Origin: Bacteroidales bacterium
GTDB lineage: Bacteria > Bacteroidota > Bacteroidia > Bacteroidales > JAIOZK01
Reading direction: 5' to 3'
Length of the DNA: 64,000 nucleotides
Assembly (NCBI GenBank): GCA_021740625.1
Contig: JAIOZK010000008.1
Span: forward strand, 27,627-91,626
This document shows positions 26,634-64,000 of this stretch, piece after piece (position 1 is the first letter of the stretch; every line of letters starts with the position of its first letter). Made by a program: the position numbers and the translations under genes. The notes under the pieces were generated by a model that did not search any database, had not been told where the DNA came from, and worked only from the letters and a program-made list of their open reading frames with translations.

Positions 26634-27974
26634 CTAGCTGAATAGCTTTTCAACTTTATGAATGGCATGGGGCAGCGTGAAAACCACCACATGGTCGTTT
26701 TCCGCAACCTGGAAATCTCCGGTTGCAATATGGCTTTCATCTCCCCGAACGATTCCCCCGATGATTGCACCATCTGGGATCTTCAATTTCCTGATGGGTT
26801 TCTTCGTAATTTGTGATCCTGGTTTTGCCACCAGTTCCATGGCTTCGGCATCGATACCACTCAGGCATTTGATGGATGTGACCTCTGCTCCCATGGTAAA
26901 ACGGATGATATAGCTGGCCGTGATCAGCTTTTTATTGATGATTGTATCGATTCCTATATTCTGTGAAATATCTATATAATCGATGTTCTCCACCAGGGCA
27001 ATGGTTTTCTGAACGCCGTATTTGCGTGCATGCAAACAGGTCAGGATGTTGGTTTCCGAATTATCGGTCACAGCGATGAAAGCATCCATGCTTCTGATAT
27101 CTTCATCTTCCAGCAATTGAATATCCCGTGCATCCCCGTTGATGATTAAAGTATCTTCCAGGTAATCCGTCAGGTAAATGCAACGTTCCTTATCAAACTC
27201 AAACAATTTGATGTTCAATTCTTTTTCCAGGCGCTTTGCCGCCGTACGACCAACCCTGCCACCACCCACGATCATGATGTTGCGAATGTCAATCTTCTGC
27301 TTGCCGCCCATCCTCATTAGTTCCTCAACCCCGCTGGGTTTGGAGATGACATAAGAAAGATCGTTCTCCAGGAATACATCTTCCCCTTTGGGAATGATGG
27401 TGGTGGAATTGCGATGGATGGCCACAGCCCGGAAATCCAGGTGGGGAACCTCGGAAGCAATCTCATTCAGTGTTTTGTTCAGTACCATGGCTCCTTTTTC
27501 AAGCTTGATCAGAAACAGGGACAATTTCCCTTCAGAAAACTCGAATATCTCTGTAGCCGCGGTTTGGTGCAACAGGGTGATAATTTCCTCGGCAGCAATG
27601 GCCTCAGGGCAAACCAACGCATCTATGCCCAATTCATAAAAAACCTTGCGGTTTTCTTCATCCAGGTTTTCCATGCTGTTGACCCGGGCAATGGTTTTTT
27701 TTGCACCCAGTTTTTTCCCAACAATGGATGTTATGATGTTGATCTGCTCATCGTGCACCACGGAGATCAGCAGATCGGCCTTTTTAACGTTGGCATTTCT
27801 CAGCACATTGATGGAAGTGGAATCACCTGTAATGGTCATCAGGTCCGTATGGGATTCCACCATTTTGAGCAATTCCTCGTGGGGATCCACAATGGTAATA
27901 TTGTGATTTTCATTTGCCAGTTCCTTGGCAAGATGCAATCCTACTTCTCCGTCTCCTGCAATGATGATGTTCAT
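26634..27974 (-). CDS. trkA: Trk system potassium transporter TrkA
   Basis: Two RCK N/C pairs; GDGEVG and GGGRVG dinucleotide-binding loops. Confidence 0.95.
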   Translation of the reverse strand: MNIIIAGDGEVGLHLAKELANENHNITIVDPHEELLKMVESHTDLMTITGDSTSINVLRNANVKKADLLISVVHDEQINIITSIVGKKLGAKKTIARVNSMENLDEENRKVFYELGIDALVCPEAIAAEEIITLLHQTAATEIFEFSEGKLSLFLIKLEKGAMVLNKTLNEIASEVPHLDFRAVAIHRNSTTIIPKGEDVFLENDLSYVISKPSGVEELMRMGGKQKIDIRNIMIVGGGRVGRTAAKRLEKELNIKLFEFDKERCIYLTDYLEDTLIINGDARDIQLLEDEDIRSMDAFIAVTDNSETNILTCLHARKYGVQKTIALVENIDYIDISQNIGIDTIINKKLITASYIIRFTMGAEVTSIKCLSGIDAEAMELVAKPGSQITKKPIRKLKIPDGAIIGGIVRGDESHIATGDFQVAENDHVVVFTLPHAIHKVEKLFS

Positions 27975-52441: not shown

Positions 52442-53910
52442 GTTAATCCTCCTATGATCATTTGTTCGGTATAATTCGTATTGATCGTATTATCGTTTGG
52501 CCTTTGCACAAAATCATTATAATAATGCAGCAGCCATCCTTCCTTTTCCCTGTACTGATATCGGATGCTTAACTCAAGTTTTTCCGTTAAAAGCATCAGC
52601 AGGTTAAGCTCTGCAATATATTTAATTTTATCGTACACATTGTAAACCACAAATGATTGGTCCCAATATGTGTTTTCGAGTTCTCCCTGCATGTATTTGC
52701 CTTCCAGCCAGATCCTTGGGAGTATTTTTAAACTGACCGATTGAGAGAACAGGAACTTATTCTCCTGGTGATTTTCTATGATATAATAAGAAAAACTTGT
52801 TGCACCGTAAAGATTCAGATTGCCGAAAGGGTAGTAATGAACACCGGCACTAAATCCAAGCTGATCTCTTAAATTCAGCCTCGAAAAGGATGCTGCCGCT
52901 GAAACTCCCAGGCATTGAAAATTCTTGTTTGCCGAAAGCCCGATGATGTAGTCATTCAAGACTGTATCCTTTTGATTGAAAATGTACTCATTTCTGATAT
53001 AATCGAAATAATTGTAGGTTCCATTAAATTTATCGTAATATTCGATTTCCTTTTCCTCATGGGGAATATAATTCACATCAAATTTCTTATAGTTTACCCG
53101 TAGATAATGCCCGTATGCAGCAATATTCCAGTCTTTTCCCAGATAAAAATCTGCTTTGAGGTATAGCTGGATTTGCCTGATATTCGACCGGAAAGTCATT
53201 TCTTCCTGCTGTAAAGTATAGTAGTAATCACTGGTAAAGGTAGTTTCAACAATGGAATCGAGTGCAAGATCCGTATAATAGCGGTATTTGTTCTTTTTCC
53301 TTCTTTGAATATAGCTCATACCGGAGTAAAGAGAAATGTCGGGTGACAGGTTCATTTTCAAACCGGCATGTGAATAAATTGAATTCCCTGTTAGCTGGTT
53401 TTCGAGGTAAATGGTGCTGTCGGTCCACTGCTTTTGCAAATCCCCGTTGTTTTTGTCATCATTGCCAAAAAGAATTCCTCCTTCTAAATAAATTTTATCC
53501 ACAAAACCCAGGTCATCGTCAATTTGCAGTTCCTTTCTCCGGGCTTCCGGGATCTTTTGAGCAAAATTCCGTGCTTGTTTATCCCTGTTCAGGTATAGGT
53601 TGGTATAATACAGGTATGTCAGCAGAGCATTGTCGTTCTGGTTGAATTCATATGCTTTTCCAAAATGCAGTTTTGCCTTAATATAATTTTTCATGGAATA
53701 ATAGGCCACCCCCATGCGATAGCGCAGGTAATAATAATCAAAACCCTGTTTGATCCCTGCCTTCCCCAGGTCAACCAGTGAGTCCCATTTTTCTTCCTGG
53801 TATAAACGATAGGTTTCCCTGTCCAGTGTCTGAAAGTCGATCTCCTTTGCAGCCATTAGATTCATGCACAATCCTGTCATCATTAAAACCAAAAAACCAT
53901 GTTTACTCAT
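52429..53910 (-). CDS. Exported protein with N-terminal TPR and probable C-terminal beta-barrel
   Basis: Signal peptide, TPR-like repeats, aromatic beta-strand pattern ending GGLTWKM. Confidence 0.65.
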   Translation of the reverse strand: MSKHGFLVLMMTGLCMNLMAAKEIDFQTLDRETYRLYQEEKWDSLVDLGKAGIKQGFDYYYLRYRMGVAYYSMKNYIKAKLHFGKAYEFNQNDNALLTYLYYTNLYLNRDKQARNFAQKIPEARRKELQIDDDLGFVDKIYLEGGILFGNDDKNNGDLQKQWTDSTIYLENQLTGNSIYSHAGLKMNLSPDISLYSGMSYIQRRKKNKYRYYTDLALDSIVETTFTSDYYYTLQQEEMTFRSNIRQIQLYLKADFYLGKDWNIAAYGHYLRVNYKKFDVNYIPHEEKEIEYYDKFNGTYNYFDYIRNEYIFNQKDTVLNDYIIGLSANKNFQCLGVSAAASFSRLNLRDQLGFSAGVHYYPFGNLNLYGATSFSYYIIENHQENKFLFSQSVSLKILPRIWLEGKYMQGELENTYWDQSFVVYNVYDKIKYIAELNLLMLLTEKLELSIRYQYREKEGWLLHYYNDFVQRPNDNTINTNYTEQMIIGGLTWKM

Positions 53911-56120
53911 AGAATTCCGTCTTTCGAGATATTGATCGCCTCTGTTTTTTGTTTCCCCTGTCGAATGACAAATTTTTTCAATTCATTCTCCCCGAAATAC
54001 ATTACAAAATTTAGAGCCCTCACCACCTTCCCTCCTATTTTTAATTCAGCAGTTGAATGCAGTTCAATCGCACTGCCAGAAATGTCTTCTGAACTCTTGT
54101 GATATAACAGGCTGTATTTTGGCCTGATGAAAATATAAAAAGGTGCAAGAAAATCCTGCAGTATCTTCCATCCTCCCAGCTTTATCCCGCTTACCGGGAT
54201 CTCATCCTCAACTTTCAATCCCCTGTAAAAACCATTCACAATCTTGAATGCACCCAGGTAGAAGTAATAAAGCAAGGTATTCTTCTTCCCCATGTAGTTG
54301 ACGAAGGAATGAATATCCCCTTCATTTTTCAGGTAAGCCTTTGCCCCGCTTGTTTTGCATAAAATGTAAGTATTGTTCAGGATATCCGTTTGTACTTCCC
54401 ATTCGAAAATTTGCTCACGACCGGATTCATCCCTGACTTCGAACTTCATCTTTTGTCCGGCAACAAAATGCAGGGCCTTTTTCAGGGTATCATTGGATCC
54501 TATGTTCGAGATTAACTGGTCTTTTTCAGGTAGGCGGAATGTTTTCAATTCATATTTTCCGGAGTGATTCAGGATATAATGTGACACAGGATAATCAACG
54601 GTTTTGGAACCCACATGTGGGGTTTCCTGCAACTGAAAATGTATATGAGGTTCCGGAGAGCGGCCCGAGTTGCCGCAATAAGCCAGCACATCGCCTTTTT
54701 TCACAAACTCCCCCCTGGTCACCTTGAATGAATCTGCTTTGATATGGCTGATCTGACTGAATACTTTTTCACGATGTTTGATCACAATGGAATTCCCCCA
54801 GTTCCTCTCCAGGTTCATATCCCCAATTTTATTGTCTTCAATGCCGTCCACGATTTCCTGCACATAGCCGTCGGCAGGGGCTACGATGGGTTTGTTATAG
54901 GCATAATAATCTTCCGGGGTATTTCCCCTGCCTTTGAATTTCTGACCTTCATCATCGAAAATCTCAAAATCCCAGGCATGTTTCCAGTCGGATTTGTGAG
55001 TCATTTCACCATCATGGGCCTGTGTCACTTTCCATTCTCCCCAGAAAGGCAATCCAATGGACACATGATCCAGGTCGTGAAAACGTTTGTGAAAATTTCT
55101 TTGCACGTACAGGTTCTTCTCCGGTGAAAACTGCTGCACCGCAACCAGTTCGGGTGATTTGAAGTATCTTTCCCTGAACTTCATCACATACAGGAAAAGC
55201 AATACGATGATATTGAAAGGCAGAGAAAAGATCGAAAGCTGGAAAATGGAGAACAATGCACTGGTGCTTGTGATGGTGATCGACAAAAGGGGTGTAAGCA
55301 GGATCACCCAGAGTACTGATAAACGTGATGGAACAACAAAGAAGCCACCCACGGCAATGGCCGAAAGGATGTAATTGAAACCGATGTAACTATAACTCAA
55401 CTCACTGATATCGGCGCCAATGAAATGATAGAAATAATAGGCTGCATAAAACCCGATGATCGAAAGCAGGAAAGCGATTCGGGAATATATCAGCAGACCC
55501 AGAGCAATCAGCAAGCCGGCAAACAAATGATACTGAAAAAAGATGGCTCCCAGTGAACGAAAATAGATCTTGATGCTTTCATGCAGGGGCAGGTTGTTGA
55601 ACCATTCGTAAATATTTACCATGGACAATCCGCCCAGCATGTACATTTCGTTCAGGTTATAAATACCCCTTTCACTGATCTCCAGCGCCGAGAATTCCCG
55701 TGCTGCCAGGGTCACCATCCAGATGCCGAACAAAAAAGAAATGCTCAGGTAGGGCAGCCCGTATTTGCCAATGATCCCTTCCAGTGAAACTGTGATGAAC
55801 AAAGTCAGAATGGCCGTAAAAATCAGGAATACATAAAACTCCACGGAAGGCTGGAAGAAAACACCAACCCCCAGTCCAACCAGCAAAGAATTGAATCCGT
55901 AATAGCCGGATCTGATATTGAATCGGTTAAATCCCAGCACAAAAGCCATGGCATTTGAAATGATCACGGCCAGCATCCCGCTGATACCGGCATAAAGATC
56001 GAAAAAGGAAACAATGATCAATGCCAGCGCAAAAATTTTATTGTTCGAGAAGAATACCTGTGTATAACTGTTTAACAGGCTTTCGATAAAGGCAGATATT
56101 TTGATCTTGCTGCTGTTCAT
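53907..56120 (-). CDS. Urea transporter (UT) domain fused to peptidase M23 domain
   Basis: N-terminal ~320 aa TM with QVFF, GYYGFNS.LVG, GAIFFQ, LPF motifs; M23 H...D (AWDFE) and GNSGRSPEPHIHFQ. Confidence 0.85.
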   Translation of the reverse strand: MNSSKIKISAFIESLLNSYTQVFFSNNKIFALALIIVSFFDLYAGISGMLAVIISNAMAFVLGFNRFNIRSGYYGFNSLLVGLGVGVFFQPSVEFYVFLIFTAILTLFITVSLEGIIGKYGLPYLSISFLFGIWMVTLAAREFSALEISERGIYNLNEMYMLGGLSMVNIYEWFNNLPLHESIKIYFRSLGAIFFQYHLFAGLLIALGLLIYSRIAFLLSIIGFYAAYYFYHFIGADISELSYSYIGFNYILSAIAVGGFFVVPSRLSVLWVILLTPLLSITITSTSALFSIFQLSIFSLPFNIIVLLFLYVMKFRERYFKSPELVAVQQFSPEKNLYVQRNFHKRFHDLDHVSIGLPFWGEWKVTQAHDGEMTHKSDWKHAWDFEIFDDEGQKFKGRGNTPEDYYAYNKPIVAPADGYVQEIVDGIEDNKIGDMNLERNWGNSIVIKHREKVFSQISHIKADSFKVTRGEFVKKGDVLAYCGNSGRSPEPHIHFQLQETPHVGSKTVDYPVSHYILNHSGKYELKTFRLPEKDQLISNIGSNDTLKKALHFVAGQKMKFEVRDESGREQIFEWEVQTDILNNTYILCKTSGAKAYLKNEGDIHSFVNYMGKKNTLLYYFYLGAFKIVNGFYRGLKVEDEIPVSGIKLGGWKILQDFLAPFYIFIRPKYSLLYHKSSEDISGSAIELHSTAELKIGGKVVRALNFVMYFGENELKKFVIRQGKQKTEAINISKDGIL

Positions 56121-57068
56121 TTAAAAACCGGCTTGTTCTTCAAATTTAAACAATTCCGAAAGCCTGAATTCCCTGAGGTGGTTTGCCAGTGCATCACCGC
56201 AAACAAATCCTGACTCCAGGATAAATCCGTTTAACAGATCATTGGGTATATCCTCGAAATAGAAATTCAGCAGCCGGACATTCGGTGCTGCATTTTTCCA
56301 GAGTTCATCAGCATCCTTTTCCTCCTCTGTTTTCAAAACTTCAAACAATGCAGGAGGGAGGTCTTTTTCATTGATCAGTTTTCGGCTGTCGGACAAAACA
56401 TAGGCGGCTTTCCCCGAATCATGAAACAGGCGTGCATAAAGATGCGTTCCTGTTTTGTTGACAAAGTGATCCGTAAAAATACCATCGCTGCCAAAGAGGG
56501 CCAGGTCCATTTCATCTGCAAAGCGGGCAACGGATGCATCGCTAATCACTCTGACCATAAACCCCATCTCCGCCAGCTTTTCAGCCTGTATTTTACCTTC
56601 TTCTGCCGGATAGGAAATCGTCTGGTAGATCCGTGGAAAAACAGACTTTTCCGACAATACCTCCAGAGTTTTCAAAACAACTGCAGTGTTGCTGTGCAAG
56701 AGTATGGTTTTCCGGGAAAGATCTTCTTTTTCCAGTAAGTGTTCTGCAATCTGTTGTTCAATTCCCTGCCATTGATTTAGATATTCTGCCAGGAAAGAGA
56801 GCAGTTCTTCTTTTGCAGCATCGCCCTTGCGCATCAATGCTTTGTCTTCAATCCGCAAAAAGAAGCTGTTGATAAAATGGAAAAGCACGATCATACCGGA
56901 ATGGGCTGAAAACAAACGATTCAACTGATCGACCAGGCGGCCGGTTTGCAGGGATGAGGACTTTCTCAAATGTTCCTGCAGTGCCTGAAGCGTTTTTTCC
57001 AGGATCCCTGTCGAACCGCTCCGGTTATCGTGCATGATTGCTTTCAGTTTTTCTTCCCAGTTATTCAT
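56121..57068 (-). CDS. eIF2B alpha/beta/delta-like (MtnA/R15P isomerase family) protein
   Basis: DNRSGS, LLHSNT, YPAEEG...AE.L, GSDGI....VNKTGT, FEDIP..L..GFI.E.G. Confidence 0.8.
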   Translation of the reverse strand: MNNWEEKLKAIMHDNRSGSTGILEKTLQALQEHLRKSSSLQTGRLVDQLNRLFSAHSGMIVLFHFINSFFLRIEDKALMRKGDAAKEELLSFLAEYLNQWQGIEQQIAEHLLEKEDLSRKTILLHSNTAVVLKTLEVLSEKSVFPRIYQTISYPAEEGKIQAEKLAEMGFMVRVISDASVARFADEMDLALFGSDGIFTDHFVNKTGTHLYARLFHDSGKAAYVLSDSRKLINEKDLPPALFEVLKTEEEKDADELWKNAAPNVRLLNFYFEDIPNDLLNGFILESGFVCGDALANHLREFRLSELFKFEEQAGF

Positions 57069-57072
57069 ATTG

Positions 57073-58431
57073 TTACAATTCGAATTTTTTCAAATGTTCC
57101 GGCACCTTTTCAAAATGGTTGATGCTTTCCATGCTTTCTTTTTCGCGGATCAGGTGGTGCTTGCCTTTCTCATCGATCATCACGATGTTGGGCCGCAATG
57201 TAATGAACTGCATCCATTGTGTCATATTGTAGGCACCCACGGAATGCACAACCACCTGCTCTCCTTTGTTCAGCAAGGGAAGGTTGGCGTTCTCACGGAT
57301 CACATCGATGTTCATGCACAAAGGACCGTAAAGCACCGTATCTTCGGTATACTGGGTAAAAGGCTGTGCTGGCGAAATTTTATGATCGTACCAGAAAGAG
57401 GTAAACAGCAGGTTTACACCAATATCGAGTATGGTGGTCCTTTTGCCATCTGCCAGCCGTTTATTGGAGATCACCGAGCCGATCAGGAAGCCGGCATCAT
57501 CGATTAGGGCACGGCCTGTTTCGAGTATCAGCAGGGGTAATTGATCCGGCTTGAAGTCGCTGTTGATCAAAGCACTGGTGATGGCCTCGGCAAAATCGTC
57601 GAAAGTGGGATTGGTATCCGATCCGGGCAGGTAAGCGCCTTTCAGGGTGTTTTTGGAAGAAAAACCGCCGCCCATGTCAATGTATTTTATTTCGTGATTG
57701 TATTTTTTCTGTATGCCCAGGGCAAGGTCAGCCATCTTATATGCCGCCACAGAATAGGCGTTGGCTGAAAGCATAAAGGTACCGATATGTGTATGCAAAC
57801 CGACCAGCTCCAGTTTCTCCGAACGCACAATCTTGTTGAGGGCATCCCAGGCCTGCCCGTTCTCGTAGTTGAAACCAAAACGATCCCACATGGGATATAT
57901 ACCGGTATCCATGTTCACACGAATGGCGACTTTGGGTTTTTTATTCATTTTGCCGGCCAGTTCGATGATGGTATACAACTCATCCAGGTGATCGATGTGG
58001 ATGAGGGAATCGTTTTCAATGGCCATTTCCAGGTCATCCACCGTTTTATCGGGACCGTTGAAAATGATCTTTTTTCCATCCACGCCGTTCAGCAACGCTT
58101 TCTGGTATTCAAATCCCGAAACCACCTCGGCCCAGGATCCTTCCTGGTGAAACACATTGCAAACCGCGCTCAGGTAATTGGTTTTATAAGACCATCCGAA
58201 TTGCACTTTGGGATAGCGCGTGCTGAATGCCTTTTTGGCTTCCCGGTAGGTTTTTCGTATGGTTTTCTCCGAGATCACAAAAAGTGGTGAACCATATTCC
58301 TTTACCAGCTCCTTCACCGCCACACCATCAATATGAGTCTTGGGTGTATATTCCGTTTTTGTACCGAATTTATTCGGCATATTGGTTTCCAGCTTCTTGA
58401 TCACCGGACGTTCGTATCTTTGTTTTTGCAT
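57073..58431 (-). CDS. Fold-type III PLP-dependent decarboxylase (LysA/BtrK-like)
   Basis: SYKTN PLP lysine, IFNGP, HTHIG, DMGGGF, ETGRAL, GPLCMNID, GAY. Confidence 0.88.
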   Translation of the reverse strand: MQKQRYERPVIKKLETNMPNKFGTKTEYTPKTHIDGVAVKELVKEYGSPLFVISEKTIRKTYREAKKAFSTRYPKVQFGWSYKTNYLSAVCNVFHQEGSWAEVVSGFEYQKALLNGVDGKKIIFNGPDKTVDDLEMAIENDSLIHIDHLDELYTIIELAGKMNKKPKVAIRVNMDTGIYPMWDRFGFNYENGQAWDALNKIVRSEKLELVGLHTHIGTFMLSANAYSVAAYKMADLALGIQKKYNHEIKYIDMGGGFSSKNTLKGAYLPGSDTNPTFDDFAEAITSALINSDFKPDQLPLLILETGRALIDDAGFLIGSVISNKRLADGKRTTILDIGVNLLFTSFWYDHKISPAQPFTQYTEDTVLYGPLCMNIDVIRENANLPLLNKGEQVVVHSVGAYNMTQWMQFITLRPNIVMIDEKGKHHLIREKESMESINHFEKVPEHLKKFEL

Positions 58432-58468
58432 GACTATTTTATGTGTTACTGATTATCTTATTTTTTCT

Positions 58469-58546
58469 ATTGTTCGATTGTTCCATTGTTTCATTTTTAT
58501 CCGATCTTGCTTTTAACAATAGAGCAATCGAACAATGGAACAATTG
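58469..58546. repeat. Inverted tandem 8-mer repeat inside the operon
   Basis: attgttcg-attgttcc-attgtttc vs aacaatag-agcaatcg-aacaatgg-aacaattg. Confidence 0.75.
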
Positions 58547-58549
58547 AAT

Positions 58550-59602
58550 TTACAATTCCCCATAAGTTGATATTTGTTCAAATTCTTTGATATCCACGAT
58601 CATATCGTATGCATACCGGATAAACATTTTACCGATATCGTAGGTTTTGTATGGCTCGACTTTCTCGCCCATGGCCAGGTTCACAAGGGCTTCTGGAATG
58701 TTTTGCCCGACACCTACTGCCAGATAGACCCATGCAGGAATTCTTGGATTGATCTCCAGGATATAGAAATCATTCTTTTTGTCCTTCATCAGTTCAAGTT
58801 CAAAACCGCCCCGCCATTTGGTCTGGCTGATAAACTTATCCGTGAGTTCCAGCATCTTTTTATCTGCAATGGAAATGCCGCCCCATGCTTTTCCTTTATC
58901 CGTGATGTATTGCTTTCGCATGGGTACGGCAGAAATGGTGTTCCCTTTTCCATCCCCCAGTCCTGTCACATTGTATTCTGTACCATGTACAAACTCCTGT
59001 ATGATGATGGGCAACCCCCATTTGGCTGAAATCTTGTTAAAAGCACTTTTGGCCTGCTCCGAATTGTACACAATGCTGGCATCATAATACTTTCCTTTTA
59101 CCACCAGCGGGTATTCAATACCTTCCGGCAAACGATAAAGATCATTCACTGTATAAATGGGTTCACTTCGGGGCACATGCAAATCGTACTTTTTGCCGAA
59201 TTCCGGGAGGTTGTGTTTGTGTCTCTCTTCAAATTGTTTCATGGTCGGTAAAAAAGTATGCATGCCGATCTCCTTCAATCTTTTCTCAAGTTTGATAAAG
59301 GAATACAATTCCGCATCAAAATTGGGAATGATCATATCGATCTTTTCGATGGAACTGATGTGTTCAAGTCTTTTGAAAAGATTCTCAATGCCGGTGGTAG
59401 GATAAGGCACATGATAGGTTTTATCCACCAGGTCGTGCATGTAGATGCCCGGCTCAAGCGATTCGTATGCCAGGCCGATGATCCGCACATCAAAAGAAGC
59501 CGCCTCCCGTAAAGCCCTGATCACCGCTACACCCGGTCCCGGACTGTCGATCGCATTCAATCCGCTGACAGCAATGTTATACTTCTTTTTCATTGTTTTC
59601 AT
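58550..59602 (-). CDS. ATP-grasp ligase (carboxylate-amine ligase family)
   Basis: YPLVVKG, IIQEFV.G.EY, FELE....FYILEINPR. Confidence 0.9.
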   Translation of the reverse strand: MKTMKKKYNIAVSGLNAIDSPGPGVAVIRALREAASFDVRIIGLAYESLEPGIYMHDLVDKTYHVPYPTTGIENLFKRLEHISSIEKIDMIIPNFDAELYSFIKLEKRLKEIGMHTFLPTMKQFEERHKHNLPEFGKKYDLHVPRSEPIYTVNDLYRLPEGIEYPLVVKGKYYDASIVYNSEQAKSAFNKISAKWGLPIIIQEFVHGTEYNVTGLGDGKGNTISAVPMRKQYITDKGKAWGGISIADKKMLELTDKFISQTKWRGGFELELMKDKKNDFYILEINPRIPAWVYLAVGVGQNIPEALVNLAMGEKVEPYKTYDIGKMFIRYAYDMIVDIKEFEQISTYGEL

Positions 59603-59840
59603 CTATTATTTGATATTGCTTCAGCATACTGATGAAATCATTGAAATCCTTTTCCAGGGTTTCGGCATCCACCTGGTATTTTTCAAGCAATTCCTTTTCA
59701 ATCTCATCAAAACTTTTGTTTTCCTTCAGCATATTGAAGATCTCGGCTGCAACCGGATTCACGGAATAGGATTCACCTGTAATGGGGTTGAACACAAATC
59801 CCGATTCGCTGACGGCCACATTGGATTTAATTTTTGTCAT
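59577..59840 (-). CDS. PqqD-family protein (RiPP recognition element)
   Basis: 88 aa; FVFNPITGESYSVNPVAAEIFNML...LLEKYQVD...EKDF..FI..L winged-helix pattern. Confidence 0.85.
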   Translation of the reverse strand: MTKIKSNVAVSESGFVFNPITGESYSVNPVAAEIFNMLKENKSFDEIEKELLEKYQVDAETLEKDFNDFISMLKQYQIIDENNEKEV

Positions 59841-59974
59841 TGAATAAAATGTTAAAGATTCATTTTGCAAGGATAAGATGAATTCAGCAAAAAGCTGTTA
59901 TAAAATTTTCAGAAAGATGTATAAGATTTCCGGCTTTTCAACTCTTGATGTAAAATCAAAAGAGCAGCTATTAC

Positions 59975-60133
59975 AAAATGAACTACCCCGCCGCATAGCA
60001 AAGAGGTATCATCTTAAATGTGCCACAGAGCGGCGGGGAACCTGACCGTCAGGCAAGTTAAACCCATGAGTTCACTCAACTATCGCTCGGGATCCCTGCC
60101 TCGCCGTCAGGCATGGAGTTCGGCTAAATGATT
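59975..60133. repeat. Dispersed hairpin element, copy 2 (longer)
   Basis: Shares aaaatgaactaccccgccgca with 30278; ccccgccgc (59986-59994) pairs with gcggcgggg (60030-60038). Confidence 0.65.
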
Positions 60134-60328
60134 TTGATTACAAAATCATGGTCTCACTGATTTAACTGGCAGGCATGTTTTTTCTAATCAGCAACCCATA
60201 TCTCTAAATAGAGTCTGTTCATAAACTTATTGTACTTCCCACATTCCTCTATAAAAGCAATTTGTTGCATAAAAAATCAAAAATCTTTAACTTTACGGAA
60301 CCTTTCTTTGGGGGGATAGATAAATTTT

Positions 60329-61384
60329 ATGAAAAACCAAAACAAAAAAATCCAGGAATTGATAACTGCATCCCGCTCAGAAATTGCGGAAGAGATTGTA
60401 AACCTGCAGTATGCAAAGAATCCTGAGGCGTGGGAAAAATACGGGCCTGCCGGCAAAAAACTCAGCATCCGGGATGCCGGATATCATTTACCTTTCTTAA
60501 CAGAAGCTATTGTTTCTGAAGATGATTCTATTTTCAGGGAATATGTGACCTGGGTAAAAAAGCTGTTCACAGGATTAAACCTGCCACAGGATACCATGAA
60601 AGTTACCCTGGAATGTACCCGGGAGGTCCTTCAGCATTATCTTTCGGAGGAAATGGCAAAAACTACAAATCACTTTATTGAATCAGGTCTTGAGCAATTA
60701 AAAAAGGAAGTAACTGATGACAAACCTTTTATCAATAAAGCGGATTACCTGGGGGAGGCTGCATATCAATATATTAATGCTTTGTTAAATGGTGACAGGA
60801 TGCAGGCCGGAGAGATCATCATGCAAACTGTTGAATCAGGGAAACCGGTCAGGGATATTTACATCCACATTTTCCAGAAATCTCAATATGAGGTTGGCCG
60901 ATTATGGCTGAATAACAAAATAACAGTAGCCAAGGAACATTTTTGCTCGGCGGCTACCCAACAGATCATGTCGCAGTTGTACCCCTACATTTTTACAACC
61001 GACAGGATCGGGAAAACTTTTGTGGCTGCTTGTATTGGAGGCGAATTGCATGAGATTGGGATTCGTATGGTAGCCGATTTTTTTGAGATGGAAGGATGGG
61101 ATACCTATTATCTGGGAGCCAATTCACCAACCAGCAGCATTGTCCAGGCCATAGAAGATAAAAATGCAAATCTTCTGGGTCTTTCCGTTGCCATGCCCTA
61201 TCACAGGAATTTACTCAGGGAGGCCATTGATGAAATCAGACAGGAAACCAACAATAAGATCAAGATCATGGTTGGTGGAAATGCCATGAATACCCATGAT
61301 GATGCATGGAGGAATTTTCGGTCGGATGCCTATGCGCCTGATGCCATCAAAGCCATTGAAATTGCAAAACAATTGCTGAATTAA
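60329..61384 (+). CDS. Cobalamin-binding sensor: helical N-terminal domain + CarH-type B12-binding module, no HTH
   Basis: W-x9-EH (WLNNKITVAKEH), ELHEIG, GLSV and VGG motifs. Confidence 0.85.
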   Translation: MKNQNKKIQELITASRSEIAEEIVNLQYAKNPEAWEKYGPAGKKLSIRDAGYHLPFLTEAIVSEDDSIFREYVTWVKKLFTGLNLPQDTMKVTLECTREVLQHYLSEEMAKTTNHFIESGLEQLKKEVTDDKPFINKADYLGEAAYQYINALLNGDRMQAGEIIMQTVESGKPVRDIYIHIFQKSQYEVGRLWLNNKITVAKEHFCSAATQQIMSQLYPYIFTTDRIGKTFVAACIGGELHEIGIRMVADFFEMEGWDTYYLGANSPTSSIVQAIEDKNANLLGLSVAMPYHRNLLREAIDEIRQETNNKIKIMVGGNAMNTHDDAWRNFRSDAYAPDAIKAIEIAKQLLN

Positions 61385-61389
61385 TCAAT

Positions 61390-62577
61390 ATGAAGGATCA
61401 TGCAATAAACGGACTGGCAGTTTTATGCGAAGAGAGCGGGAAGATCGAAAAGGTTCTCCGGGATGATTTTGGTGCACTGCAAAATGCAGGCGGAAAACAA
61501 TTCTCAAATATCATCGACCCCGGCTCGCGAGAGAAATCACTGAATTTCATCCTGGAAATTAAAAAGAAGAACATTGCATTTGACTATCAATTGAACATGT
61601 TGATCGATCAGAAGCTGAAAACACTTTATTTCATCGGGATACACCTTGATGAAAAAATTATGCTCATCGGAGCCGATAATCACAAGGAAGCCCTCGAATT
61701 CACCAATCATTTGCAACAAATATCCAACGAGCAAGCCAACCAGATCAGGGATTTACTAAAACAGCAGGCCATTAGGTCAAACAACAATGATAAGGAAACA
61801 GCACACCTGTTTGACGAGTTGACCCGCCTGAACAACGAATTGGTAAACCTTCAACGTGAGCTCTCGAAAAAAAACATTGAGCTTGAAAAGCTGAATGATC
61901 TGAAAAACCAGTTCATGGGGATGGCAGCACATGACATGCGAAATCCCCTGGGTATTATTCAAAACTACACTGAATTTCTGATTGAAGAGATTGCTGACGA
62001 TCTTGAAGAAGATCACCGCATGTTTTTAAATACCATCTATGAATCGACTGATTTCATGTTAAAGCTGATTGAAGATTTGCTCGACTATTCCAAAGTCGAA
62101 TCAGGGAAAATACAGTTGAATCCTTCCAGCTTTGATCTTGTTGAACTAATGCTGGATAATATCAAACTGAATCAAAGTCTCGCCAATAAGAAAGATATCA
62201 GGATTCATTTCGAGCATCCCGGCAAAATACCAATATATGCCGATCAGCATAAACTTGTTCAGGTGTTGAACAATCTGCTGAGCAATGCCATCAAATTTTC
62301 TGAAAACGGATCGAACATCAACGTTAAACTGCTCCTTGAAGGTAATAAAATTACACTCCGGGTAAAGGACGAAGGTATCGGGATAAAGGAGGAAGACCTT
62401 GAAAAGTTGTTCGTTCCTTTTTCCAAAATCTCCAGTACAGGCACCGGAGGAGAAAAAGGAACAGGATTGGGCTTATCCATTGTTAAAAAAATCATTGAAA
62501 GTCATAATGGAAGCATACAGGTGAAAAGTAAATATGGCGAGGGAACAGAGTTTTCAATCCATATGCCAACAAAGTAA
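61390..62577 (+). CDS. Cytoplasmic sensor histidine kinase
   Basis: No TM; coiled coil, AAHDMRNPL, NNLLSNAIKFS, DEGIGI, GTGLGLSI. Confidence 0.95.
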   Translation: MKDHAINGLAVLCEESGKIEKVLRDDFGALQNAGGKQFSNIIDPGSREKSLNFILEIKKKNIAFDYQLNMLIDQKLKTLYFIGIHLDEKIMLIGADNHKEALEFTNHLQQISNEQANQIRDLLKQQAIRSNNNDKETAHLFDELTRLNNELVNLQRELSKKNIELEKLNDLKNQFMGMAAHDMRNPLGIIQNYTEFLIEEIADDLEEDHRMFLNTIYESTDFMLKLIEDLLDYSKVESGKIQLNPSSFDLVELMLDNIKLNQSLANKKDIRIHFEHPGKIPIYADQHKLVQVLNNLLSNAIKFSENGSNINVKLLLEGNKITLRVKDEGIGIKEEDLEKLFVPFSKISSTGTGGEKGTGLGLSIVKKIIESHNGSIQVKSKYGEGTEFSIHMPTK

Positions 62578-62585
62578 ATTGAGTA

Positions 62586-63764
62586 TTGAAAAAAGATTTT
62601 AAAATATTGATTGTTGATGACGATCCTGATATTATTCAGGTCATTGAGCGTTCTTTGCAATCGGAAAATTACAAAACAGCATCCTGCCGGGATCTGAATT
62701 CAGCAATGGAGCTGATCAGGGAAATAAACCCCAACTTGCTTATTCTTGATGTAATACTACCAGATGGAAACGGAATTGAAGCGGCTGCAAGTATCCTGGA
62801 AAATCAGCCCAACCTGGATATGTATATCTTTTTGATCTCAGGCAATAGAAAGTCCGGGGATGATCTGGAAAAGGCTTATCAATCGGGTGTCCTGGATTAT
62901 GTACTCAAACCCATCAACCTGAAAGAACTAAGCAGAAAGATCAAGCTGATTTATCGCATAACAAAACTTAAAGAAAAACAAAAGCTTGCTGAAGGGAAAT
63001 ATATGCACCTGATCAAGCATTCGAATGATCTGATTTTCTCAATTGATAGCAAACAAAAGATATTGCTGCTCAATACCAGTTTTGAAAATGTAACGGGTCA
63101 TACAACCTGGTCATTGAAAAACAAAACTTTTGAAAAGATAGTATGCGCGGAAGATCAGTTAGAATGGAATGAATATTTGAAAGCCATCTTAACAAACCAG
63201 GCCAGCAATGCTCATGAAATTCGAATTCTTGACAAGGATCAGCAAATAATACCCCTGAGAGTTTTTCTGTCAAAAATAAAGCATGATAATGAAGAGATTG
63301 GTTTTCTTGGTATTGCAAAAGATCTGAGTGAGCAAAAACTGCTCAACCTGGAAAAAGGTTCCGGGGAAAATTCGCGCAAGCGGGAAATGAGGTCCTGGTC
63401 TGTTTTATCCGACAGCCAGACCTCAAAAACGTCGGATATCTACGAAGGAGCTTCTCCATTTAAAACAGATCCGGAGATATACGAACGACTTTTCAAAGAC
63501 TACCAGCAGATTCTTGATAAAAGCGTTGAACAAAGGATATACAAGGTCCATTTCAACGGAAAAGAGAAGCTGATAAAAATGGCAAGCGAATTTGGTTTTC
63601 TAAAAGCCTCCCCAAGGGAGGTGATCAAGTTAAACAGCATGGTCCTTAAGGAAAAAATGAAAACAAAACACCCCAGGAAGTTAATCGTATACCATGAAGA
63701 AGCCAGGCTGATCATGCTGGAATTGATGGGTTACCTGGCATCCTATTACAGAAACAGAATTTAA
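62586..63764 (+). CDS. Response regulator REC-PAS with KaiA-like C-terminal helical domain
   Basis: ILIVDDD, LDVILPDG, KP; PAS segment; C-terminus RLIMLELMGYLASYYRNRI; TTG start. Confidence 0.8.
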   Translation: MKKDFKILIVDDDPDIIQVIERSLQSENYKTASCRDLNSAMELIREINPNLLILDVILPDGNGIEAAASILENQPNLDMYIFLISGNRKSGDDLEKAYQSGVLDYVLKPINLKELSRKIKLIYRITKLKEKQKLAEGKYMHLIKHSNDLIFSIDSKQKILLLNTSFENVTGHTTWSLKNKTFEKIVCAEDQLEWNEYLKAILTNQASNAHEIRILDKDQQIIPLRVFLSKIKHDNEEIGFLGIAKDLSEQKLLNLEKGSGENSRKREMRSWSVLSDSQTSKTSDIYEGASPFKTDPEIYERLFKDYQQILDKSVEQRIYKVHFNGKEKLIKMASEFGFLKASPREVIKLNSMVLKEKMKTKHPRKLIVYHEEARLIMLELMGYLASYYRNRI

Positions 63765-63775
63765 ATGGAATAAAC

Positions 63776-64000
63776 ATGAATAAGTACACATTCAAATTGT
63801 TTTTAACCGGTAAATCCGCCCGATCGGAGGGAGCGGTTAAAACCATTAAACAGATTTTAAAAGATGAATCCGGTTTGGAATTCAAACTGGATATCATCGA
63901 TGTACTTGAAAGTCCTGATATTGCTGAACAGAATAAGGTACTGGCAACACCAACACTCATCAAATTGTTGCCTCCTCCGGTCAAACGTCTGGTTGGTGAT
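63776..64000 (+). CDS. kaiB: Circadian clock protein KaiB (3' truncated; not in ORF track)
   Basis: Manual translation MNKYTFKLFLTGKSARSEGAVKTIKQILKDESGLEFKLDIIDVLESPDIAEQNKVLATPTLIKLLPPPVKRLVGD; IDVLxxP, LATPTLIK and PxxRLxGD are KaiB signatures. Confidence 0.93.
   Translation, partial: MNKYTFKLFLTGKSARSEGAVKTIKQILKDESGLEFKLDIIDVLESPDIAEQNKVLATPTLIKLLPPPVKRLVGD

Follow-up and report, generated by a model that had tools for sequence, protein, structure and literature searches.

The locus analysed here lies at the end of a 64,000-nt stretch of DNA (the window; contig positions 27627–91626) from the genome of a Bacteroidales bacterium (4.0 Mb, 52 contigs). It comprises an operon of six co-directional plus-strand genes, separated by successive gaps of 5, 8, 11, 11 and 3 nt as read from the open reading frames (ORFs) and the contig. 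These genes encode a predicted cobalamin-binding sensor, a histidine kinase, a KaiA3-like protein in which a receiver (REC) and a PAS domain precede a KaiA3-type C-terminal domain (KaiA3C), KaiB, KaiC, and a hybrid kinase. The first three genes and most of kaiB lie in the window, and the remainder was read from contig positions 85000–103000 around the operon (L008; window coordinate = L008 coordinate + 57373; other handles beginning with L denote the loci compared). An initial annotation, made from the window, had described a module of four closely packed genes running in one direction, 5, 8 and 11 nt apart, and had predicted a kaiC past the window edge. The four ORFs are present on the plus strand at the positions given below, with NCBIfam in agreement with their Pfam assignments, and a double-domain kaiC does follow, so that four genes stand as part of the unit and not as the whole of it, which continues through kaiC and the hybrid kinase beyond the window.

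60329–61384, plus strand: photocobilin-type sensor, 351 aa (Pfam; phmmer against PDB)
61390–62577, plus strand: soluble PAS histidine kinase, 395 aa (Pfam; AlphaFold2 (AF2) model)
62586–63764, plus strand: REC-PAS-KaiA3C protein (protein 3), 392 aa, TTG start (Pfam, AF2, Foldseek, homology)
63776–64000 in the window (75 of 89 codons), ending at 64045 (L008:6403–6672), plus strand: kaiB (Pfam KaiB)
L008:6684–8213, beyond the window, 11 nt after kaiB, plus strand: kaiC, 509 aa (Pfam KaiC, E 7e-120)
L008:8217–10280, beyond the window, 3 nt after kaiC, plus strand: REC-PAS-HisKA-HATPase-REC hybrid kinase, 687 aa

Proteins of the operon

Protein 3 contains a receiver (aa 7–119; Response_reg, E 2e-22), a PAS domain (137–252), a linker, and a C-terminal bundle (aa ~294–392, window ~63465–63761). 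On reading of its residues the receiver is intact, retaining D11/D12, the phospho-acceptor D55 (LLILDVILPDG), S84 and the K108-P pair. The AF2 model of the C-terminal domain is a four-helix bundle with predicted local distance difference test (pLDDT) values above 90 for the modelled residues 31–128. Its top PDB folds are the KaiA C-terminal domains 1q6a, 5jwr, 5n8y, 1r5q, and 1r8j (probability 0.82–1.00; root-mean-square deviation (RMSD) 3.3–5.6 Å; template-modelling score (TMt) up to 0.78; Foldseek E 0.07–1.3), with unrelated helical bundles giving a probability below 0.3 and an RMSD above 10 Å. KaiA3C homologues were sought in one genome per species using a family profile and tblastn, which yielded 167 loci; among the best 80 considered, the domain is 37–47% identical over 115–126 aa to proteins of Crocosphaera watsonii WH 8501, Cyanothece, Microcystis, Roseiflexus, and Chloroflexaceae, taxa from which KaiA3 orthologs have been published (PMC11372060). 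The Microcystis homologue carries Ser in place of the receiver Asp and has no adjacent kaiC, both features matching the KaiA3 report (PMC11372060), and in nearly all of ~90 loci an ORF with a KaiA3C domain lies directly upstream of kaiB-kaiC. In a profile–profile comparison (hhalign) with six canonical KaiA C-terminal domains, the whole bundle aligned colinearly in one piece over 92 columns (P 0.0014, probability 17%). Because fold, homology to KaiA3, gene context, and profile comparison converge, we assign the C-terminal domain of protein 3 to the KaiA3 branch of this fold. The bundle model, the KaiA folds, the identity to KaiA3, and the profile alignment thus bear out the initial annotation in placing a KaiA-like C-terminus behind a phosphorylatable receiver; a KaiA in a non-cyanobacterial host is not in itself new, the KaiA3 family described in 2024 being already known outside cyanobacteria (PMC11372060).

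Domain models were silent on this protein. Pfam KaiA (PF07688) gave no match at E<=10 on its C-terminal 137 aa and NCBIfam none of significance, phmmer and hmmsearch retrieved no significant KaiA match for the domain among PDB sequences, and a six-frame Pfam KaiA scan of the genome returned two sub-threshold chance matches, both elsewhere. Among 13 aligned family members, the only suggestive marginal Pfam matches were to KaiA (E 0.027, one member) and RsbU_N (E 0.11, two members), which have been named as families sharing the KaiA fold (PMC11372060). As a control, six cyanobacterial genomes with both proteins were examined, and in these PF07688 finds canonical KaiA and misses KaiA3. Since the model misses true KaiA3, its silence on protein 3 is uninformative; and since it detects canonical KaiA only, domain annotation systematically misses KaiA3-type proteins. 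Cyanobacterial KaiA3 proteins (L037, L065, and others) carry Response_reg alone in their Pfam annotation and, where named, are called (OmpR-family) response regulators.

Several features set protein 3 apart from characterised proteins: it resembles canonical KaiA only weakly (Foldseek E 0.07; hhalign probability 17%), its receiver differs in type from the NarL-like one found in characterised KaiA3, and it does not share the two-domain architecture of ~300 aa. Its receiver is 17.5% identical (E 0.02) to that of Crocosphaera KaiA3 and 23% to that of Roseiflexus; identity reaches 34–36% with Blastocatellia REC-KaiA3C receivers and with the receiver at the N-terminus of the hybrid kinase. Given this non-orthologous receiver and the inserted PAS domain, protein 3 is therefore a KaiA3-type output on a swapped input module. 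An exhaustive search with a hidden Markov model placed the KaiA3-type C-terminal domain in 1,743 clusters at 50% identity, always at the C-terminus of proteins of ~160–850 aa whose N-terminal modules vary (REC, REC-PAS, PAS-PAS without REC as in Acidobacteriaceae (L087:6176–7408), and longer ones). The domain occurs in many phyla, and in one metagenome-assembled genome (MAG) labelled Helarchaeota. A 2024 listing of KaiA3 named 15 cyanobacterial species and five other genera (PMC11372060); the distribution of the family is far wider than published.

Turning to the Kai proteins that follow, the stretch at 63776–64000, already read as KaiB in the initial annotation, matches Pfam KaiB with E 2e-22 for the window part and 1.5e-25 for the full 89 aa (PF07689, 89 bits against a cut-off of 27). 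It is closest to cyanobacterial clock KaiBs (82 bits to 1R5P/1WWJ), and the source genome encodes a single KaiB and a single true KaiC. The latter is matched twice by Pfam KaiC, in keeping with its double RecA-like domains, and aligns end to end with reconstructed ancestral KaiC-beta 8ZN5 (727 bits) and with KaiC of Synechococcus elongatus (612 bits). It keeps the catalytic EE pairs (TFEESP, AFEESR), equivalents of T426/S431/T432 (T..HISTITD), and the C-terminal tail, and has no KaiC2-type C-terminal extension. Its identity to KaiA3-linked KaiCs, those of Crocosphaera and Cyanothece included, is 70–76% (70–72% for the cyanobacterial ones), against ~57% to KaiC1 (CI half). Judged by its sequence, the operon KaiC is KaiC3-type; KaiCs of this group oscillate in vitro, self-sustained, with their own KaiB and KaiA3 (PMC12081879, PMC11372060). 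In the complete genome of Colwellia sp. PAMC 20917 (CP014944; L016:7161–8674), kaiC is called as two genes of 417 and 87 aa, and a near-identical metagenome contig (L017) has a single 504-aa kaiC; the split is likely a frameshift in the isolate or its assembly. The hybrid kinase, whose N-terminal REC-PAS is 32–36% identical to that of protein 3, is conserved downstream of KaiA3BC sets, including those that lack the sensor; the sixth gene is the likelier output, a role we infer from this context.

The sensor encoded by the first gene begins with a photoglobin, that is, a phycobiliprotein-like globin (Pfam Phycobilisome-like, aa 7–118, E 9e-8), followed by a B12-binding_2 cap (147–217, E 6e-15) and a B12-binding Rossmann domain (231–327, E 2e-21). 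Its closest solved relatives, retrieved from the PDB by phmmer over the B12 and globin parts, are SasPcob/AbPcob (8J2W/8J2X/8J2Y; E ~1e-21), and SasPcob-type photocobilins are experimentally proven photoreceptors that use adenosylcobalamin (AdoCbl) and biliverdin (PMC10979010). The GxxW/EH/GxxH/GxxxP signature that experimentally separated light-responsive from non-responsive cobalamin domains (PMC11796333) is complete (G190-R-L-W193, E203-H204, G238-E-L-H241, G263-A-N-S-P267) and invariant in a 14-member alignment. The residues D49 and W75, both likewise invariant, align with the biliverdin contacts Asp270 and Trp296 of SasPcob in a globin alignment that is itself weak (domain E 1.7); the SasPcob numbering uses an offset of +6 from SEQRES to the paper, calibrated as W55/E65/H66 = W61/E71/H72. 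The sequence S46-x-R48-D49 resembles the phycobiliprotein C-x-R-D motif, with the Cys lost as in photocobilins. Pfam and NCBIfam searches found no MerR-type or other helix-turn-helix (HTH) DNA-binding domain, the N-terminus being globin-like, and a CarH/LitR identity is therefore ruled out. The sensor is of the photocobilin/photoglobin type, probably with two chromophores. Of the CarH-type B12 sensor in the initial annotation, what remains is a domain of the AdoCbl-photoreceptor type with the full light signature; the bare CarH domain gives way to this photocobilin/photoglobin-type architecture.

A search with the sensor gave 2,987 matches at E<=1e-10; the names among them come from Bacteroidales, Prolixibacteraceae, and Perlabentimonas, lineages that live largely as anaerobes in sediments. 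At two of the loci compared, a radical-SAM gene lies directly upstream of the sensor gene (L012:4445–5686 and L102:5493–6782). Its best match is ChuW/HutW, an anaerobic heme degradation enzyme producing the linear tetrapyrrole anaerobilin, at 267–292 bits against ~170 for HemW and under the 400-bit equivalog cut-off. The window holds no such gene, and L012 and L102 are its only occurrences among all loci compared; the neighbour hints at an O2-independent bilin supply for photoglobin domains in anaerobes.

The second gene product is a histidine kinase by its Pfam HisKA (172–239, H-box MGMAAHDMRNP) and HATPase_c (285–394) domains, the identity it had been given initially. Its residues 1–100 (window 61390–61690) had no Pfam match; the AF2 model of aa 1–175 shows an N-terminal PAS fold (aa ~8–95) with pLDDT 84–91 across the PAS core, for which Foldseek returned PAS matches (E 4e-6, TMt ~0.7), among them the PAS domains of PpsR, an ortholog of CrtJ. 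From the PAS domain, a coiled coil of strong conservation leads to the dimerization and histidine phosphotransfer (DHp) domain. In every sensor locus examined, a kinase with this PAS N-domain follows the sensor. Cys13, on the first strand of the PAS domain, is invariant in all nine aligned orthologs and may be a redox- or ligand-reactive site.

Proposed pathway from light to KaiC

Taken together, these assignments lead us to lean towards reading the operon as a KaiA3-KaiB-KaiC protein timer, with a KaiC3-type KaiC, that has its own photosensory input and a kinase output. In the pathway we propose, the photocobilin would bind AdoCbl, with His241 as the lower ligand and W193/E203/H204 arranged round the adenosyl group, and probably also a non-covalent bilin at D49 and W75. 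Light would cleave the Co–C bond and alter the conformation or oligomeric state of the sensor, which could then dock on the PAS domain of the adjacent kinase and switch its autophosphorylation. D55 of the REC-PAS-KaiA3C protein would receive phosphate from the kinase, as might the paralogous receiver at the N-terminus of the hybrid kinase. Phosphorylation of the receiver of protein 3 may alter how the KaiA3-type bundle engages the A-loop/C-terminal tail of KaiC, and the bundle would thereby determine how fast KaiC autophosphorylates its conserved Ser/Thr pair, with KaiB opposing. Light would in this way set or entrain the KaiC phosphorylation cycle, with the REC-PAS-HK-REC hybrid kinase reading out the state of KaiC/KaiB. 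The sequences themselves establish the domains and families of the proteins, the retained cofactor and phospho-acceptor residues, and the make-up of the operon and its recurrence. The photochemistry, the stimulation of KaiC3 phosphorylation by KaiA3, and the oscillation of KaiA3B3C3 are carried over, by analogy, from experiments on homologues (PMC10979010, PMC11372060, PMC12081879); the contact between sensor and kinase, the phosphotransfer partner, the effect of D55 phosphorylation, and the output through the hybrid kinase are suggested by gene order, co-occurrence, and intact residues.

Recurrence of the operon and alternative readings

The order sensor, PAS kinase, REC-PAS-KaiA3C, KaiB, KaiC, with or without the hybrid kinase, occurs in at least seven loci: that of the window, two Logan metagenome assemblies (L011, L012), two Joint Genome Institute (JGI) metagenomes (L103, L112), and two Ignavibacteriaceae MAGs (L070, L077); apart from these last, the genomes are Bacteroidia-like. 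Identity to the window proteins is 71–79% for KaiC, 52–64% for KaiB, 51–64% for the sensor, 50–60% for the kinase, and 28–40% for the KaiA3-like protein. The operon also lies among different neighbouring genes in these loci. The gene order therefore recurs at divergent sites, as the initial annotation had asked of it, yet the sensor–kinase pair also occurs free of Kai genes. When six sensor loci were sampled regardless of Kai genes, two were Kai-linked (L103, L112), three were bare pairs (L101, L104, L111), and in one (L102) the pair stood before REC-PAS-GAF hybrid kinases. The pair is far commoner than the full operon and is a free-standing module. As a separate observation, in the otherwise intact six-gene operon of L112 the last helix of the KaiA3-like protein (L112:9270–10454) reads as unrelated sequence in place of the conserved C-terminal motif ELMGYLxxYYRN; this looks like a frameshift, due either to an assembly error or to a pseudogene.

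This distribution weighs against the proposed timer, as do the weak likeness of protein 3 to canonical KaiA and its receiver of other than NarL type. The pair is often found without Kai genes or before other hybrid kinases, and its cognate receiver therefore need not be the KaiA3-like protein. Locus L101 (GCA_015657915.1, NPIE01007774.1) is syntenic with the window on both sides: upstream it has the minus-strand PqqD/ATP-grasp/PLP-decarboxylase/eIF2B-like/UT-M23 operon (window 53900–59870) in the same order, and downstream AraC, PorZ, and RecO. It retains the pair and lacks the block of KaiA3, KaiB, KaiC, hybrid kinase, and ferritin, so that the adjacency could have arisen by insertion. The KaiA3C domain is, moreover, absent from all five same-genus and all 55 same-order genomes examined; it occurs in 8 of 401 genomes sampled from the phylum, and in the other seven of these the B12-domain matches lie on other contigs (one genome has none).

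These points bear most directly on the possibility that the genes are adjacent yet differently wired, the partner of the pair being either the hybrid kinase, through its N-terminal REC, or a regulator away from the operon, and light acting on the clock output or on unrelated genes. Such wiring would fit the bare pairs of L101, L104, and L111 and the REC-PAS-GAF hybrid kinases of L102, as well as the dispensability of the Kai block at the syntenic empty site in L101; the 32–36% identity between the REC-PAS regions of the hybrid kinase and of protein 3 also means that either could be the target of the kinase. Set against this, the REC-PAS-KaiA3C gene directly follows the kinase gene in all seven Kai-linked loci, with gaps of 3–21 nt or a short overlap, and of the seven loci seen with a PAS-bearing form of KaiA3, six also have the pair. 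Some Kai-linked loci have a truncated or different hybrid kinase, L011 retaining only a 59-aa REC fragment in its place. We regard this alternative wiring as unlikely, and the picture that emerges is of a portable photosensor–kinase module joined to a KaiA3BC cassette in a minority of lineages, the joined form having been kept long enough to diverge to about 30–75% identity.

The surroundings of the operon include the following further features.

60032–60165, no strand assigned: direct repeat, upstream copy, ~130–170 nt (repeat search)
L008:10349–10530 (~67722–67903 in window numbering), beyond the window, no strand assigned: direct repeat, second copy (repeat search)
L008:10632–11123: ferritin/rubrerythrin-like gene, after a gap of ~350 nt from the hybrid kinase gene

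The repeat consists of three colinear segments of 77–88% identity with indels, and its two copies, in direct orientation, bracket the six genes. A third copy was not found by blastn and mafft in ~75 kb of the contig or in the other loci compared, and the copy of the operon in L112 has no flanking direct repeats. The repeat could have been left behind when the cassette was inserted, or it could be a regulatory or terminator element that was duplicated. A short motif within it, GYCAGGCAWG, has two matches, which by itself is not above chance. The ferritin/rubrerythrin-like gene is followed by an AraC-type gene on the opposite strand; it is not part of the cassette elsewhere, and in L112 a HAD hydrolase gene occupies its place. 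Genes of the type IX secretion system (T9SS) and PorZ also lie beside the operon, with PorZ_N and Por_Secre_tail matches on the syntenic 793-aa ortholog in L101; together with the names of the nearest sensor homologues, they underlie the placement of the genome in Bacteroidota. An Rfam scan of 18 kb around the operon found no cobalamin riboswitch and no other credible RNA, and counts of sigma-70 promoters and terminators were not above those of shuffled sequence, the consensus being ill-suited to Bacteroidota. In a compositional comparison aimed at recent transfer, the operon is only mildly deviant (G+C fraction 0.41 against 0.435), with a tetranucleotide distance that is only marginally the highest.

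A further alternative concerns the signal itself: instead of light, the sensor might report in darkness how much cobalamin is available, the form of the cofactor, or the redox state, so that the Kai module would be gated by B12/corrinoid status or oxidative conditions. The relatives of the sensor come from these largely anaerobic, sediment-dwelling lineages, non-photic functions are also known for B12-binding domains, the NCBIfam matches include corrinoid methyltransfer proteins, and a ferritin/rubrerythrin-like gene follows the operon. We nevertheless consider this quite unlikely, in view of the complete and invariant light signature (PMC11796333), the proven photoreceptors that are the closest solved relatives, and a phycobiliprotein-like bilin pocket that keeps the key Asp and Trp. 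A Kai set that keeps no time, acting instead as a stress-response switch as reported for the KaiBC/KaiC-like systems of Legionella and Pseudomonas, with the KaiA3-like protein as a response regulator bearing a KaiC-binding output, would accord with the link of non-cyanobacterial Kai homologs to stress resistance (cited in PMC11372060), with the failure of a Bacteroidota KaiC (F. johnsoniae) to oscillate in vitro with heterologous KaiA/KaiB (PMC12081879), and with the patchy distribution of the operon, and appears equally improbable to us against a KaiC3-type KaiC whose group members oscillate self-sustained with their own KaiA3 and KaiB, a KaiB closest to clock KaiBs, fully intact KaiC phosphosites and catalytic residues, and a dedicated light input suited to a day/night function.

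Returning to the light-controlled timer, a bolder version may be ventured, which we put forward tentatively and with considerable doubt. The sensor–kinase pair would then be the missing cognate input of KaiA3-type clocks, and the operon a light-entrained daily oscillator, self-sustained or strongly resonant, whose core the photoreceptor signal reaches through only one kinase step, in non-phototrophic, probably anaerobic Bacteroidota/Ignavibacteria. Bilin might in some lineages be supplied, independently of oxygen, by a ChuW/HutW-like enzyme, and KaiA3C would be a widespread KaiC-regulating output domain to which bacteria attach sensory modules of various kinds.

Comparison with known systems

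The closest described counterpart is the KaiA3-KaiB3-KaiC3 system of Synechocystis sp. PCC 6803 (Koebler et al. 2024, PMC11372060), a second type of Kai oscillator, with which the operon has in common the gene order kaiA3-like, kaiB, kaiC, as well as the KaiA-type bundle, a receiver with a phospho-acceptor Asp, and a KaiC3-type KaiC without extension. It differs in that the receiver of protein 3 is not NarL-type and a PAS domain is inserted between receiver and KaiA3C, in its host, a non-phototrophic Bacteroidota, and in the photoreceptor and kinase encoded within the same operon; for KaiA3B3C3, the cognate kinase, input, and output were stated to be unknown (PMC11372060). A related system is KaiC2/KaiA3 of Cyanothece (PMC12081879). 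Compared with canonical KaiABC and CikA/SasA of S. elongatus, the operon shares a KaiA-type activator, KaiB, a double-domain KaiC, and input/output histidine kinases. In its activator, however, the pseudo-receiver is replaced by a true phosphorylatable receiver together with a PAS domain, and the C-terminal domain is too diverged for Pfam KaiA; its input would be a photoreceptor–kinase relay instead of redox/quinone and ATP/ADP sensing, and it has no SasA-type kinase with a KaiB-like domain.

On the side of the sensor, the photocobilins SasPcob/AbDPcob (Zhang et al. 2024, PMC10979010) have the same B12 cap, Rossmann domain, globin, W/EH motif, His ligand, and Asp and Trp. The operon sensor stands alone, as SasPcob does, with a permuted domain order in which the globin comes first. 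Stand-alone photocobilins were described without a known downstream partner (PMC10979010), whereas the partner proposed here is a histidine kinase with a PAS domain, by way of which the signal would enter a Kai clock. A photoglobin–B12 hub linked to two-component genes was predicted by Schneider et al. 2021 (PMC8717448), and the sensor adjoins two-component genes as that paper foresaw. The probable use of an AdoCbl-type B12 domain as a light sensor links the operon sensor to AerR-CrtJ of Rhodobacter capsulatus and to CarH/LitR. AerR, also a stand-alone B12 protein, works through binding to a partner with a PAS domain. The operon sensor differs from CarH/LitR in having no MerR/HTH domain, and from AerR-CrtJ in that its proposed partner is a histidine kinase and not a transcription factor.

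The papers on photoglobin (PMC8717448), photocobilin (PMC10979010), and SignatureFinder (PMC11796333) make no mention of Kai or circadian function, and the searched literature held no link between a B12 photoreceptor and a Kai system, in agreement with the initial annotation, which had known of no Kai system with a B12 input. If the proposed pathway is correct, the operon would clearly exemplify light-driven timekeeping machinery in bacteria that do not photosynthesise. It might, for example, allow them to anticipate the stress that oxygen and light bring each day in mats or sediments, and its parts could be of use to synthetic biology as a green/red-light-controlled clock module. The proteins are small and soluble and lend themselves to reconstitution in vitro, making signal input to a KaiA3-type clock directly testable. 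Every protein of the operon belongs to a described family, and the wiring from photoreceptor through kinase to KaiA3 receiver would be new to the literature searched. The operon joins the KaiA3B3C3 and photocobilin discoveries, with a candidate protein for every step.

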